A program made the translations under genes and the position numbers. A DNA stretch of 64,000 bases from a phage. The notes under the pieces were generated by a model. It searched no databases. It was given only the letters and a program-made list of their open reading frames with translations, and had not been told where the DNA came from. Each line of letters opens with the position of its first letter. The first letter of the stretch is position 1. Shown here piece by piece: positions 12,854 through 56,042 of the stretch. The stretch is from the sequence record PZ338878.1, one strand, 5' to 3'.

Positions 12854-13981
12854 ATGAAATACACGATTTATGGTGATATTGTAAGTGTAAATAAAGATAT
12901 GGGCGTGGAATCTAACTACCTTCCACCTGGATTCTATACTGTTAGTCGTGATCCCCTTGGCAATTACTTTTTAAGCCGTGGTAATCTAACAGGTGTACCG
13001 GATGTTCTGTATGGTGAAACAGAAAAACGAGCAAATCACGTTATTCGTACATTCCATCGCCGTAGTGCACAAGGTAAAAACACAGGCTTGCTTCTGACAG
13101 GAACTAAGGGCAGTGGTAAAACTATGTTAGCCAAACTCATTAGTCGTGACCTTGTAGAAGAAGGTATTCCAACTATTATGGTTACTCAAGCCTACAGCGA
13201 TGCTAATTTCATTGAACTTATTAGCAAGATCACCGACAAAGCAGTGATTATTTTTGACGAGTTTGATAAAGTGTATGAGAAGAAACAAGATCAAGAAGCA
13301 CTTCTCACTTTGTTAGATGGTACTGGCAGTGGTAATAAACTGTTTATTCTGACTAAAAACAGTGGTTTTATCTCTGAATTCTTTTTAAATCGTCCTAGTC
13401 GTGTGTTTTATAATTTTAATTATGATAAAATCTCACTAGAAACTATGATTGACTACTTAGATAAAAACCTGGATAACAAAGCACACTTTGATAATTTCCA
13501 AAGACTTTGGGATGTAAGTTTAGAGTTGTCCTTTGATGTGATCCAAGGTATAGTAGAAGAACTTAATTTCTACCCTGATTTATCCTTTAAAGAATGCATC
13601 TCTATGATGGGCGTTTCTTTAGGTGGTGGTAATAAATGGGATATCAGCAGCGTTGTTATTAATGGAAAACTTCAGAAAGTTAGCTGGGTATCTAGTTGGC
13701 ATAACTTCACACCTGCAATCTTTTTAGGTGGTTCGTGCACACTAGACGTGTACTTGTCATCTCCAAGTGATGCAGACTCTAAAGAAGCCCTTGCTAATAG
13801 CTCTTACGTGGTTTTTGATGATGAAGGAGATGCTCGAATTCCATTGAATGCGACAAAAATGAAAGCAGATCTTATTACAGGCGGTAAAATCGTTGTGTTT
13901 AGTGACGATCCAGAAGATTCTTTCCGTATTGTTCTGGAACCAACTATCACCAATGGTGCAACTTTGGCAAGTGTGTTTTAA
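12854..13981 (+). CDS. P-loop (AAA-type) ATPase
   Basis: Walker A GTKGSGKT, Walker B VIIFDEFDK. Confidence 0.7.
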   Translation: MKYTIYGDIVSVNKDMGVESNYLPPGFYTVSRDPLGNYFLSRGNLTGVPDVLYGETEKRANHVIRTFHRRSAQGKNTGLLLTGTKGSGKTMLAKLISRDLVEEGIPTIMVTQAYSDANFIELISKITDKAVIIFDEFDKVYEKKQDQEALLTLLDGTGSGNKLFILTKNSGFISEFFLNRPSRVFYNFNYDKISLETMIDYLDKNLDNKAHFDNFQRLWDVSLELSFDVIQGIVEELNFYPDLSFKECISMMGVSLGGGNKWDISSVVINGKLQKVSWVSSWHNFTPAIFLGGSCTLDVYLSSPSDADSKEALANSSYVVFDDEGDARIPLNATKMKADLITGGKIVVFSDDPEDSFRIVLEPTITNGATLASVF

Positions 13982-49857: not shown

Positions 49858-49875
49858 AACCCCCGTGAGGGGGTT
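49858..49875 (-). terminator. terminator/attenuator hairpin
   Basis: CCCCC-GTGA-GGGGG. Confidence 0.5.
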
Positions 49876-49884
49876 TATGTTAGA

Positions 49885-50538
49885 TTAATTATCAGAGGAC
49901 ACTTTATCAAGTTTTTCAGAGACTGTCAATACTTTTTCTTGTGATTCTTTCATTTCTGCTAAAATACTTTCAGCTTCATCACTATCAGGATCACCAGTCA
50001 ACAGCATACTAATTAGTTGCTCCTTGCTGAAGTTCAGAATATCTTCCGCTGTTAGTTCCAGTTGTTCTTCGATCTCTTCAACAAAAGTTTCACCGCCTGA
50101 AAAAGCATCTCGTAGTTTTGCAACTTCCATCGCTTCTTCTGGGGTTGCCCCAGCGTCTAAAGCTGCTAAAGCAAAATCTGCCCCACTACCAACAGCATAG
50201 TAATCTTCAGTTAAAGGATATGCTCGCGTTGGATTATTACCCTCGTGCATATAAATTTTACCGTCTGGGTGAACAACCAATGCCACAAACTCTTCATCTT
50301 CTTTATCAGGATCTGACTGGATCACCAAACCTGGGATTGTCTCTTGTGCTGCCTGGCACTGTAAGTTTTGTTCGAACCAAGAAAAGAAAGTCAGGATAGA
50401 AGACAGACGTCCTGCACCACCAACAAGGTAATCCCCAATTTTACGCACTTTCTTGAAATTTAAAGTGTCTACTCGATTACCTACTGTTACTTTACCGTCA
50501 GATAGAATTTTGTTATGTGTTGCAATAATTGTTGTCAT
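49885..50538 (-). CDS. HslV-like proteasome-type (Ntn hydrolase) peptidase with acidic C-terminal extension
   Basis: N-terminal MTTI, KKVRKIGD, GGAGRLSS, AVGSGADFALAA parallel E. coli HslV. Confidence 0.7.
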   Translation of the reverse strand: MTTIIATHNKILSDGKVTVGNRVDTLNFKKVRKIGDYLVGGAGRLSSILTFFSWFEQNLQCQAAQETIPGLVIQSDPDKEDEEFVALVVHPDGKIYMHEGNNPTRAYPLTEDYYAVGSGADFALAALDAGATPEEAMEVAKLRDAFSGGETFVEEIEEQLELTAEDILNFSKEQLISMLLTGDPDSDEAESILAEMKESQEKVLTVSEKLDKVSSDN

Positions 50539-51029
50539 TGTACTTCCTCCTGTAGTGTTTTAAGGACTGCTTTACCACCGCTTACATACTTACGTAGGTA
50601 ATCAATAGCTCTTAGTGTTTCTTTATCCACAAGAATTTTATTAGTTCTTGTTAGTGGATGATTTAGTAAATCACTGCAATTTCTTACTAACATAGACTTC
50701 TTGTGAAAGATACTGCTAAGAAAAAGAAGTTTAGAATCTTCTTCATCAATCAGGAGTAATTCTGAATTAGATCCGGCTACATTTATTATACACTCAAACA
50801 AGCCTTCTTGACTATCAGATAATTCCTGGTAATATTTAGTTAGCCAATCCTCTCCTTTTAACCAACTAAAAAACATCTGAACTTTTTGCAAAGTTGTCAT
50901 GTTCTCTAAACGAAGAGATATTTCTTTTTCAATCTTGTCAATATAAATCTGTCTAAACTCATTCGGCTTAACTAAGCCAGCTTGATAGCATTCATCAATA
51001 CCATTGCGATCAATCTCAATTAGCGTCAT
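50535..51029 (-). CDS. hypothetical protein (164 aa)
   Basis: ORF. Confidence 0.5.
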   Translation of the reverse strand: MTLIEIDRNGIDECYQAGLVKPNEFRQIYIDKIEKEISLRLENMTTLQKVQMFFSWLKGEDWLTKYYQELSDSQEGLFECIINVAGSNSELLLIDEEDSKLLFLSSIFHKKSMLVRNCSDLLNHPLTRTNKILVDKETLRAIDYLRKYVSGGKAVLKTLQEEVQ

Positions 51030-51065
51030 TTAACCTCCATAACAGGCATCCTTGCCTTGTAATTA

Positions 51066-51818
51066 TTAATATACTTCCGTGATGAACTGAGACAAACGGG
51101 AACGTTGGTTATCAGCAGTTGTCATTTCAACATAACCAATAAAATCTACAATAGCTTCCCTTTCTCCTTCTTCGTTAATAGGAACAACACGATCTAACAA
51201 ATCACCTAACCCGTTAGCTCTTCGTTTAATTGCATATGTTTGATTAACATCACCCATAATGACAATTCGTGTATTAAGACCTGCTCGCTCAAGGAGAAGT
51301 TTTACTGTGTTTGGTGACATAAGTTGAACTTCATCAATAAGAATAATGCTGTTATCCCACGTAGCACCTAGTGCATAGTTTGGAATATTAAGTTCAATTT
51401 TGCCACTTGCAATATCGTTTTCCAATTTATTTGCAGTCATAAACTGTTGGAAAATTCTTTTAGTTGACTCGTAGTGTGCTGCTAGTTTATCAGTCTTATC
51501 TCCAGATAAGAAACCGATTTGGTCATCACCTACTTCTGTCGGGTTTTTAAGGAAAATCAACTTTCTGAAGTCACCAGCTTTAAGCATTTGCAATGCTTTC
51601 CATAGTGCTGTTGTCGTTTTTCCTGTTCCTGCTGGGGCATTAACAATGGTTAAATCATTCCAAACCATGCTTCTTACAATAGCTTCTTGATTCCCAATAG
51701 GGGTAAATTCATCAAGACGGTAATCATCATTTCCTACTGCTTTAGCCGCATAACGACTGGCACGTTTGTCATCATTGGCTGCTGATTGACGACGAGCCTT
51801 TGCGGTTTTATTTCCCAT
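51066..51818 (-). CDS. phoH: PhoH-like ATPase
   Basis: Walker A NAPAGTGKTT and PhoH-like layout. Confidence 0.8.
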   Translation of the reverse strand: MGNKTAKARRQSAANDDKRASRYAAKAVGNDDYRLDEFTPIGNQEAIVRSMVWNDLTIVNAPAGTGKTTTALWKALQMLKAGDFRKLIFLKNPTEVGDDQIGFLSGDKTDKLAAHYESTKRIFQQFMTANKLENDIASGKIELNIPNYALGATWDNSIILIDEVQLMSPNTVKLLLERAGLNTRIVIMGDVNQTYAIKRRANGLGDLLDRVVPINEEGEREAIVDFIGYVEMTTADNQRSRLSQFITEVY

Positions 51819-52517: not shown

Positions 52518-52784
52518 TTACTCCGCAATCTGAGCCATGAATTCACGTAGTTCAGAAAAACCTCCTACGTGGGTTAGATGTTCACCATCTTCCACAAAAA
52601 TTTGAGGAAAGGTACGTGGCAGAACACCTGTTTTCTCTAAAACCAGATTCTGAATCTGATCTAAAGAATAGTCTTCATCTAAGGTAAGATATTTAAAATC
52701 CTGTTCACGCTGTTCCAGTAGAATCTTAGCGTTAGTGCAGAAAGGACAATTTGGTTTACCGTAGATAATAAAATTCATTTTCAC
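52518..52784 (-). CDS. glutaredoxin-like protein (RNR electron donor)
   Basis: CPFC active-site motif; 88 aa. Confidence 0.8.
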   Translation of the reverse strand: MKMNFIIYGKPNCPFCTNAKILLEQREQDFKYLTLDEDYSLDQIQNLVLEKTGVLPRTFPQIFVEDGEHLTHVGGFSELREFMAQIAE

Positions 52785-53611
52785 TCCTTGTTTAAAAGTA
52801 TAGTTAAAGTTCTTACAATACCGCTATCAACACTTCGCGGATTTAAAGTAGGATCTGTTTTTAAATAAGATGTTGCTGGTCTGACTGCTTTAGAATTATA
52901 GGTTGAAGCAGATACAGGATTAACTGTAACAGATAAATCTATAACAAGAAATATCTTACGTGCAAAATCATACCAAGAAATATAATCTGCACCTGCATAG
53001 TGTACAATTTTACTATTTACACCATCTTTTACAAGTTTAAAAATTGTTTCTGCAAGATCAGGTGCATAAGTAGGACATGATAAATGATCACATACTACAT
53101 TAAATTCTTTTTGACCACCGTTGTAGCGTTCCAACATAGTTTTCAAAAAGTTATGTCCAAATTCACTATAAACAGAAGCTGTTCTGATAATAAGTGCTGT
53201 AGGACAAACTGCTTGTACTAAAGTTTCACCTAATTGTTTACTGTAACCGTAGGTGTTCAAGGGGTTTGTTTTACTATCTTCTGTGCCAGCAACATGCCCA
53301 TCAAAAACATAGTCTGTTGAAATATGTACAAACTGTATCAGTAAATCATTACATGCTTTGGCAATGTTTGTTGCACCGTATGCATTAACATTTATACAGG
53401 TGTTAACATCTTCTTCAGCTTTATCTACTGCCGTGTAAGCTGCACAATTCACAACAACGTCAGGCACGTGCTGTACAAGACTATTCATAACATCTTTAAA
53501 GTTGGTAATGTCTATATCACTTGCTTCAATCAAAATAACATCTTCGGGCGCAACTTTTGCCAAAGACTGTCCTAATTGACCTTTTGAACCAAAGATTAAA
53601 AATTTTGTCAA
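52781..53611 (-). CDS. rmlD: dTDP-4-dehydrorhamnose reductase
   Basis: N-terminal Rossmann GSKGQLG; size and operon position. Confidence 0.75.
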   Translation of the reverse strand: MTKFLIFGSKGQLGQSLAKVAPEDVILIEASDIDITNFKDVMNSLVQHVPDVVVNCAAYTAVDKAEEDVNTCINVNAYGATNIAKACNDLLIQFVHISTDYVFDGHVAGTEDSKTNPLNTYGYSKQLGETLVQAVCPTALIIRTASVYSEFGHNFLKTMLERYNGGQKEFNVVCDHLSCPTYAPDLAETIFKLVKDGVNSKIVHYAGADYISWYDFARKIFLVIDLSVTVNPVSASTYNSKAVRPATSYLKTDPTLNPRSVDSGIVRTLTILLNKE

Positions 53612-54162
53612 AATATGATCTCCTTTAGTGTTTTGGCTTGCTGATCTTTTTGTGACAAGATAGGTTTAAAATTAATATCATTAAAGATTAAATCAAAACC
53701 CCAATCTATATTGATATCTGGATCATTCCACACAAGACTACACTCTGAAGTCGGATCGTAATATTCTGTACATTTATATTCAAAATCAGCAATGTCGCTA
53801 ATCACAACAAAGCCATGAGCGAAACCAGGAGGAATCCAAAATTGTGTTTTATTCTTTTCAGATAAAAGAACACCTACCCATTCTCCAAATGTCGGACTAC
53901 CAACCCTAATATCTACAGCAACATCATAAACTTCACCACGAACACAACGTACTAACTTCCCTTGTGGGTTTTTCTTTTGAAAATGAAGCCCACGTAGAAC
54001 TCCTCGAATAGAACGTGAGTGGTTATCCTGGACAAAGTTTTGTTTACCTATGTATTGATCATATAAAGCCTGATTAAAACTTTCTAAGAAAAAGCCACGT
54101 TCATCTCCGTAAACGTCAGGTTGAATGATCAACAAATCTTCGATTTTTGTTGCTTGAATCAT
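53608..54162 (-). CDS. rmlC: dTDP-4-dehydrorhamnose 3,5-epimerase
   Basis: DERGFF motif; cupin-size 184 aa. Confidence 0.8.
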   Translation of the reverse strand: MIQATKIEDLLIIQPDVYGDERGFFLESFNQALYDQYIGKQNFVQDNHSRSIRGVLRGLHFQKKNPQGKLVRCVRGEVYDVAVDIRVGSPTFGEWVGVLLSEKNKTQFWIPPGFAHGFVVISDIADFEYKCTEYYDPTSECSLVWNDPDINIDWGFDLIFNDINFKPILSQKDQQAKTLKEIIF

Positions 54163-54174
54163 TTAATTCCCCCT

Positions 54175-55044
54175 TTATTTTAATTTAAGTAAATACTTAC
54201 CGTAGTCTGTTTTACTTAAAACCTCTCCAGAACTTTTTACAGAGTCTAAAGTAATCCATTCATTTTTAAAAGCAATCTCTTCTAGGCATGCAACCTTCAT
54301 ACCTTGTTGCTTTTCTATTGCATGAACAAATTGAGATGCTTCCATAAGACTTTCATGTGTTCCTGTATCCAGCCAAGTGAAACCTCTTCCTAGTTTACAG
54401 ACACGTAAAGTCTTTTCTTTCCAGTACATCTCATTTATATCTGTAATCTCTAACTCCCCTCTAGCAGAAGGTTTAACGCTCTTAGCTTTCTGTATAACAG
54501 AATTATCGTAAAAGTACAAGCCTGTGATTGCGTAGTTGCTTTTTGGTGCTTTTGGTTTTTCTTCAATACTCACCACTGTACCTTCAGAATCAAACTCAAC
54601 AACACCAAATCTTTCAGGATCATTTACGTGATACCCAAAAATATTAGCTCCACCATTCTTTTCAATATATTCTTTAGTAGAATCTAAAATGCTACCAAAA
54701 CTCTGACCAAAGAATAAATTATCACCTAGCACAAGTGCTACAGAATCTTCGCCAATAAAGCTCTCACCAATAATAAACGCTTCTGCTAAACCTTTCGGGC
54801 TTTCTTGTATTGCATACTGTAGGGAAATACCAAAAGAAGAACCATCACCTAAAAGATTTACAAAATTAATTTGATCTTCTGGTGTTGTAATTATTAGTAT
54901 TTCCCTAATTCCAGAAAGCATTAGGACAGAGAGTGGATAATAAATCATAGGCTTATCGTAAATTGGTAATAGTTGTTTACTAACCCCTTTAGTAACTGGG
55001 TAAAGTCTTGTTCCACTACCACCTGCTAAGATAATACCTTTCAT
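54175..55044 (-). CDS. rmlA: glucose-1-phosphate thymidylyltransferase
   Basis: N-terminal [14 protein letters not shown]. Confidence 0.9.
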
Positions 55045-55052
55045 ACTCCTCC

Positions 55053-56042
55053 TTAAACTTTATTTTCCCACCACTCTTTGTTATCTACATACCAATCAAT
55101 GGTTGAATAAAGTTTTTCTTCAAATGTGCCTTTAGCTTTCCACCCTAATTCCTTTTCAATCTTATAAGGATTCACTTCATATCTTAGATCATGCCCAGGT
55201 CTATCTGTAACCATCTCAATTAGGCTACAAGCATCTGTTTCAGATGGATACACCGCATCCATATAATCACAAATCATATAGATTACATCAATATTAGTTC
55301 TAGGGTTTCTGCTCCCAATATTATATGTTTCTCCAGATTTGCCTTTAGTTACTACTAGGTGTAGTGCTTCTGCGTGATCGTCAACGTATAACCAATCTCT
55401 TACTTGAAGACCATTACCGTAAACAGGGATTGGTTTATGCATCAAGATATTTGTTATCGTTTTAGGTATTAGTTTTTCTGGATGATGATATGCTCCAAAA
55501 TTATTTGAACAATTTGTTATAACTGTCGGAATACCATAAGTACGATGCCACGCTCTTACCAAATGATCGCTTGCAGCTTTAGATGCAGCATATGGACTAC
55601 TTGGTTTATAAGGATTCTGTTCTGTAAACGGATAATCCCCTTCTTCCATATCACCATACACTTCATCTGTTGAAATATGATGAAACATTTTAAGATTTGA
55701 TTTATCTCCCATTAAACGAACAGCTTCTAGAAGATTAAATGTTCCAACAATATTTGAATTTATAAAAACACTCGGTGATGCTATTGAATTATCTACGTGA
55801 CTTTCTGCTGCAAGATGCATTATATAATCTGGATTAACATCTGCCACAATCTTAGCAGTTAACTGAGCATTTGTCAAGTCAACACGACAAAACTTTACAT
55901 TAGGTGTTTCTGATAAATTTCTAGGGTCTGAAGCGTAACCCCATTTATCTATAACGTAAATATCATTCTTAGTATTTTTAGCCAGGAAACGAACTACTGC
56001 ACTTCCAATAAAGCCTAAACCACCTGTTACTAAGTATTTCAT
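55053..56042 (-). CDS. rmlB: dTDP-glucose 4,6-dehydratase
   Basis: TGGLGFIGS and YAASKAASD (YxxxK). Confidence 0.9.

Follow-up and report, generated by a model that had tools for sequence, protein, structure and literature searches.

A proteasome/HslV-type peptidase gene of phi92-like phages whose HslU-docking face appears to be lost

In subunits of the proteasome family, the apical face, with which the alpha ring or HslU makes contact, is built from helices H1 and H2, and the rings touch one another through H3 and H4. One position of HslV that we take to be related to HslU is Lys28, on the basis of the HslUV structure of H. influenzae. Residues Phe54, Phe57, Gln114 and Lys80 of HslV have been assigned to the pocket for the HslU C-terminal tail or to the pore (PMC6429459), and Arg86, Arg89 and Lys90 are its basic pore residues (PMC5777263). 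BPH (Betaproteobacteria proteasome homologue), the closest analogy to the protein described here, descends from HslV and has neither a known ATPase partner nor a known function; its HslU-interface residues are reported not to be conserved, its pore loop is acidic, pull-downs found no association with HslU, and the protein was inert in standard peptidase assays (PMC5777263).

In the literature, HslV- and proteasome-like genes of phages were met with in descriptive genome papers only, and a functional study was not found; a paper on a jumbo phage already remarks on the presence of “only HslV, no HslU” (PMC7823757). What the proteasome-like peptidases of this extensive viral family do is a genuine question, if not a new one. 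The present analysis concerns a known gene of the family and narrows the hypotheses on its function, in that canonical docking on HslU appears unlikely.

The peptidase gene and its viral family

The sequence analysed, hereafter the window, is a stretch of 64,000 nucleotides (PZ338878.1) from a Justusliebigvirus (phi92-like myovirus, Stephanstirmvirinae), which shares 97.7-99.5% identity with 56 phage records over the 1.7-2.5 kb that span the peptidase gene. The open reading frame singled out in the preliminary description is real, and lies on the minus strand behind an AGGAGG ribosome-binding site (Table 1), one being annotated at the equivalent place in the phi92 record. Its product begins with MTTIIATHN and is 98.6-100% identical at the amino acid level to Justusliebigvirus proteins, including phi92 gp058. 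Near-identical proteins have been labelled “peptidase HslV family”, “putative 20S proteasome” or “putative proteasome component”. With such annotations already present in dozens of GenBank and RefSeq records, the gene is not new in itself. Four records named “Campylobacter phage” (MG065639.1, MG065645.1, MG065656.1 and MG065689.1) are about 98.5% identical over the region to this genus of E. coli phages, and probably either their host labels are wrong or the stocks were contaminated.

Table 1. Features of the peptidase locus and of a distant ATPase gene, in window coordinates.
Feature	Position	Strand	Remarks
Phage HslV/proteasome-beta-like Thr peptidase CDS	49885..50538	minus	217 aa + stop; homologue of phi92 gp058; PHROG 1040
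AGGAGG ribosome-binding site	50546..50551	minus	7 nt 5' of ATG; read from sequence
Catalytic core, residues 1-155	50074..50538	minus
Nucleophile Thr2	50533-50535	minus
Asp14	50497-50499	minus
Lys30	50449-50451	minus
Acidic loop TIPGLVIQSDPDKEDE, residues 68-83	50290..50337	minus	in place of H2 and of the HslV basic pore cluster Arg86/Arg89/Lys90
Gly117-Ser118-Gly119	50182-50190	minus
Post-core helices, residues 156-183	49990..50073	minus	motif LT.E....SKEQL..L
Distal acidic tail, residues 184-217	49888..49989	minus	sequence and length vary, acidic composition conserved
GC hairpin CCCCC-TCAC-GGGGG (coding strand)	49860..49873	minus	5-bp stem; read from sequence
gp059	50535..51029	minus	164 aa; PHROG 14834; directly upstream of peptidase; stop overlaps peptidase start (ATGA)
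AAA ATPase	12854-13981	plus	PHROG 2376; Pfam AAA PF00004

The product is an N-terminal-nucleophile (Ntn) peptidase of the proteasome beta/HslV superfamily (MEROPS T1), which bears out its earlier identification as an HslV-like, proteasome-type enzyme. PHROG 1040 (“peptidase HslV family”) matches residues 1-212 with an E-value of 1.5e-62, and Pfam Proteasome (PF00227) scores 24.4 bits against a gathering threshold of 22.4 (E 2.6e-5), with only residues 11-63 matched. The significant phmmer matches in PDB are all HslV chains (E 2.4e-7 to 1e-4), and a tblastn search with HslV of E. coli MG1655 recovers the reading frame (E 4.7e-6; 29% identity, 127 aa aligned). An AlphaFold2 model made with 70 homologues (pLDDT 83.5 overall, above 90 for most of residues 1-155) predicts the alpha-beta-beta-alpha sandwich of Ntn hydrolases, and BPH (PDB 5OVS/5OVT) is its top Foldseek match (E 3.7e-10).

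By sequence score, the peptidase is not an HslV orthologue: the two HslV equivalog models of NCBI (NCBIfam NF003964, TIGR03692) give 34.5 bits against a cut-off of 137 and 32.2 against 157.75, far below these curated limits. Relative to HslV (ClpQ), about 17 core residues are deleted, helix H2 among them, a C-terminal extension of 62 aa is added, and hslU is found neither next to the gene nor elsewhere in the window or in the complete genome of the related phage PHB05. Unlike archaeal and eukaryotic 20S proteasome beta subunits, which reach an E-value of only about 0.1 in the PDB phmmer search, the phage protein has no propeptide, no alpha-subunit partner and, as predicted, no H2. It is a member of PHROG 1040, as are phi92 gp058, phAPEC8_0094 and the “20S proteasome A and B subunits” of phiCbK, and has in common with this family an MTT start, the Asp and Lys, the Gly-Ser-Gly, Trp54 and a (D/E)3-Phe motif.

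This family is large. With a profile of 70 sequences, 8355 cluster representatives (clusters at the 50%-identity level) were matched at E <= 1e-3; the number fell to 2023 with a limit of 1e-10 and to 58 with 1e-30. All 10 sampled matches of 140-199 aa belong to PHROG 1040, and none reached the HslV orthologue cut-offs. About half of the family consists of minimal forms of 140-180 aa that are devoid of the C-terminal extension; a minimal member matches 640 phage genome records, nearly all with Proteobacteria as hosts, and the carriers of the family vary in genome size from Salmonella siphoviruses of 42 kb to Caulobacter phages of 300 kb. The Proteobacteria that serve as hosts of such phages generally have HslU.

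Aeromonas phage 4L372D features two adjacent Ntn-hydrolase genes (L006 5432-5983 and 6001-6885), one for a protein of 183 aa that begins with MTCII and has Gly-Cys-Gly instead of Gly-Ser-Gly, and the other for a 294-aa homologue of the window peptidase; this pair could encode a two-subunit particle.

Active site and HslU-docking face

Upon alignment with mature E. coli HslV, Thr2, Asp14 and Lys30 of the phage peptidase correspond to Thr1, Asp17 and Lys33, Gly40 and Gly43 to Gly45 and Gly48, and Gly117-Ser118-Gly119 to Gly123-Ser124-Gly125. These residues, among them Thr2, Asp14, Lys30, Gly43 and the Gly-Ser-Gly motif, are invariant across 70 relatives. They make up the set expected of the superfamily, with Gly43 as the Gly47-type oxyanion Gly and Gly117-Ser118-Gly119 as the Ser129-type Gly-Ser-Gly. 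Among 145 distant representatives, each position of the active-site set is kept in 129-145, with the MTT start present in 127, the Asp in 141, the Lys in 143 and a Gly-Ser/Thr-Gly in 144-145 of them; Trp54 and the (D/E)3-Phe motif are also conserved in these representatives and are specific to the family. The viral family keeps a complete active site, and is never accompanied by HslU. The preliminary description had drawn attention to the Thr directly after Met and to HslV-like internal motifs, and would have abandoned its reading had the catalytic residues not been conserved. In the alignment Thr2, Lys30 and Ser118 are all in place, and since the catalytic Asp, Lys and Gly-Ser-Gly are conserved this objection does not arise.

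Judged from these residues, the phage peptidase is probably catalytically competent. Thr2 would be exposed as the N-terminal nucleophile by host methionine aminopeptidase, as in E. coli HslV, with no propeptide involved. It has also to be considered that the protein has no protease role in infection, but shuts down host proteolysis as a poison subunit or decoy, by titrating the HslU of the host or joining with host HslV in mixed assemblies, or is an Ntn hydrolase that acts on a non-protein amide. The little or no activity of the BPH and Anbu relatives in standard assays and the very acidic nature of the phage protein (net charge about -23) are consistent with such a role. Nevertheless, it is difficult to see why, in the absence of catalysis, the catalytic set should be near-invariant among hundreds of divergent sequences, and the features of the HslU interface that a decoy needs are not conserved, which together make this the most improbable of the explanations considered here. 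As BPH was inert in standard assays, the closest analogy offers no example of an enzyme that is active by itself.

The apical side of the molecule differs from that of HslV in the AlphaFold2 model. Residues 45-67 form a single helix where HslV and 20S beta subunits have H1 and H2, and residues 68-83 are coil according to DSSP, so that helix H2 of HslV is predicted to be missing; the alignment with HslV has deletions corresponding to it. Helices H3 and H4, in contrast, are retained. The loop at residues 68-83, in which the (D/E)3-Phe motif is found, reads DPDKEDEEF and is acidic instead of basic as in the pore cluster of HslV. Of eight docking and pore residues of HslV (Lys28, Phe54, Phe57, Lys80, Arg86, Arg89, Lys90 and Gln114), only Phe57 is kept, in a residue map that is moderately reliable because it derives from an alignment at about 29% identity, and from a short list of HslV residues taken mostly from secondary sources. 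The equivalent of Lys28 is Thr in the window peptidase and Thr, Gln, Ser, Asp or Ala across the family, and that of Lys80 is Ser, or Ser, Ile or Val across the family, a Lys never being found at either position. Arg89 and Lys90 are both replaced by Glu (Glu and Glu/Asp, respectively, across the family), Gln114 by Tyr, Phe54 by Leu and, conservatively, Arg86 by Lys; the equivalent of Arg35 is conserved, as is that of Phe57. On this map and model, the face for docking of a partner looks lost, and canonical HslU docking unlikely. The changes are of the same kind as in BPH, in which a loss of interface residues is likewise reported and the pore loop is acidic. The phage peptidase is not itself a BPH, as defined by a specific sequence relationship, a long acidic pore loop and a tetradecamer.

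These observations bear on the suggestion, made in the preliminary description, that host HslU (ClpY) is recruited by the phage protein. In such a scheme, the peptidase docks on host HslU hexamers, where it replaces or competes with host HslV and redirects ATP-dependent proteolysis. The retained equivalents of Phe57 and Arg35 would be in keeping with this, as would the hosts known for phages carrying the family, almost all of which are Proteobacteria, although this bias may simply be one of the databases. The suggestion nevertheless seems unlikely: scores fall far under the HslV orthologue cut-offs, H2 is predicted missing, the equivalents of Lys28 and Lys80 are never Lys, the basic pore cluster is charge-reversed, and pull-downs with BPH, an HslV descendant that has undergone similar changes, revealed no association with HslU (PMC5777263). 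Of the original interpretation, the HslV/proteasome-type identity thus stands, whereas recruitment of host HslU is disfavoured, on account of the orthologue scores, the missing H2 and the changed docking residues.

We somewhat favour the explanation that the protein is an accessory ring peptidase which is either independent of HslU or differently partnered. Its retained H3/H4 face points to an arrangement in stacked rings like those of its relatives, and its apical face would have been remodelled, with H2 gone and the acidic loop replacing the basic pore cluster along with the changes at Lys28 and Lys80. Because of this remodelling, the enzyme would most likely have no need of canonical docking on HslU, which seems to be the case for BPH too, and its substrates may be host or phage proteins or peptides. 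The C-terminal extension of 62 aa, with two semi-conserved helices followed by a variable acidic tail, may have a role in regulation, gating or the binding of a partner.

C-terminal extension and candidate partners

The peptidase exceeds E. coli HslV in length by 41 aa. Owing to internal deletions in its core, what follows the last core strand is longer than this difference, comprising about 62 aa (residues 156-217) with a net charge of -12, close to the family median of 63 residues and an identical charge. The acidic tail of about 45 aa initially noticed is therefore acidic as stated, and its length was roughly right as regards the difference from HslV. The first part of the extension, with AlphaFold2 helices at residues 164-168 and 172-181, has a median identity of 39%, and its motif (Table 1) is recognisable in homologues from Vibrio and Aeromonas phages at about 35% identity. 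This motif is absent from HslV and constitutes a signature of the tail-bearing branch of the family. Median identity falls to 19% in the distal acidic tail, where residues 202-217 have pLDDT values below 50. A known domain (SAP/HeH-like or other) was sought in the extension, and the tails of five homologues gave no Pfam match even at E <= 10. Three homologues of 280-379 aa (P0061, P0065 and P0069; e.g. L009 6001-7140) have an additional C-terminal domain, which in P0061 and P0069 carries a CxxC motif (KGVCKFCGKITY / KGVCGKCGHTVY), and all three end in a conserved W(R/K)L(H/A)(N/D).

More tentatively, and with some doubt, PHROG 1040 may be envisaged as a widespread group of viral “mini-proteasomes” without H2 and the HslU interface, which would act during infection as self-contained Thr proteases, ATPase-independent or differently activated, their possible targets including, for example, defence proteins or regulators of the host. 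In the present branch, the post-core helices and acidic tail would gate or activate the enzyme in cis, or recruit its substrates. In one form of the cis idea, the segment AEDILNF would mimic the activating C-terminal peptide of HslU (..ADEDLSRFIL), a likeness that is short and may be a chance resemblance. If active alone or with a new activator, such proteins would be the simplest known proteasome-type proteases, and a phage route to reshape the host proteome.

The preliminary description had found no HslU near the gene, and this is confirmed and extended here: tblastn with E. coli HslU yielded no homologue when run on the 64-kb window and on the complete genome of phage PHB05, which is 99.5% identical to the window in this region (best E = 3, over 15 aa), and no Clp- or HslU-type annotation is present in the PHB05 genome. 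Partners encoded by the phage itself are another option, the candidates being gp059, as an adaptor, cap or inhibitor, or a PHROG 2376 AAA ATPase. For gp059, the overlap of its stop with the peptidase start implies translational coupling, and homologues of 36-38% identity are still located upstream of the peptidase in distant contigs, so that the two genes are syntenic neighbours throughout the wider Stephanstirmvirinae-like lineage and gp059 may be a partner. However, it was not found beside the peptidase copies of Vibrio and Aeromonas phages, it is absent from many small phages with a minimal peptidase, and its all-helical AlphaFold2 model (pLDDT 91.8) matches no fold in PDB. Moreover, the whole block of genes for NrdAB, glutaredoxin, lysozyme and PhoH, followed by the peptidase, is syntenic across these genomes, and the adjacency of gp059 and peptidase may therefore reflect common descent only.

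It was also considered whether gp059 could be a degenerate HslV-like paralogue, as its MTLIEIDRNG start, an FFSW motif and the Ntn pair of 4L372D seemed to suggest. This was rejected: profile-profile comparison gave a probability of 0.08%, position 2 is not conserved, and the all-helical model has no counterpart in PDB.

The ATPase of the window and a paralogue just outside it (PHB05 118223-119383), proteins of 375-386 aa, match PF00004 and have weak similarity to p97/Cdc48 D2, and to spastin and fidgetin. Their family occurs in 380 phage records and is widespread in large phages, whether their hosts are Gram-negative or Gram-positive; among these are Herelleviridae-type phages of Firmicutes (Bacillus, Staphylococcus and Enterococcus) that are not among the peptidase matches. 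They match clamp-loader and DnaC PHROGs as well, and no aromatic-hydrophobic-Gly pore loop was seen by eye between Walker A and Walker B. With this broader and different phyletic spread, the other PHROG matches and no pore loop seen, the two proteins are unlikely to be the missing unfoldase. Taking gp059 and the ATPases together, a phage-encoded partner looks decidedly unlikely, somewhat more so than docking on host HslU.

Natural deletion and gene neighbourhood

An accessory role of the peptidase is apparent from Escherichia phage VEcB (MT932211.1, RefSeq copy NC_052663.1; region L010, MT932211.1 19500-24500), which lacks the DNA corresponding to window positions 50353-51474. This deletion of 1122 bp, with an 8-bp overlap (microhomology) at the junction, results in an in-frame fusion (vecB_055), in which residues 1-113 of PhoH are followed by residues 63-217 of the peptidase, with the loss of peptidase residues 1-62, including the Thr nucleophile, Asp and Lys, of all of gp059 and of half of PhoH. 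The locus is intact in the other 54 records. Since VEcB is a natural deletion, the peptidase is dispensable for propagation: it is conserved in almost all relatives and dispensable in one isolate, and its function is accessory, kept by purifying selection in nature but not essential. The comparison of VEcB with some 50 near-isogenic intact relatives provides an easy genetic handle on this function. The RefSeq record of VEcB still calls the fusion protein “peptidase HslV family”.

The peptidase gene lies about 36 kb from those for terminase, portal and capsid, inside a block of replication and nucleotide-metabolism genes. Given this early/middle location, its product is neither a virion component nor a prohead protease. 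A function as prohead protease in capsid maturation was rejected because the gene is outside the head module and only Proteasome/HslV families match, prohead protease families giving no match.

The GC hairpin downstream of the gene (Table 1) sits in the 40 nt that separate the stop of the peptidase gene from the start of gp057, and is followed by TTATT and the gp057 ribosome-binding site. It was not called by a terminator scan, and promoter and terminator counts between 46 and 56 kb were no different from those of shuffled sequences. PADLOC gave no match for gp057, gp058 or gp059 that would link them to defence or anti-defence, and no tRNAs were found in the window. The genes for glutaredoxin, lysozyme and PhoH are closely preceded by those for a complete dTDP-rhamnose pathway (window 52781-56042, minus strand), as in phi92, with homologues of an RmlD-like reductase, epimerase, thymidylyltransferase and dehydratase. 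A region of about 25 kb (approx. 15500-40500) has no ORF of at least 200 aa; its counterpart in PHB05 is densely packed with small hypothetical genes, as is typical of an early region.
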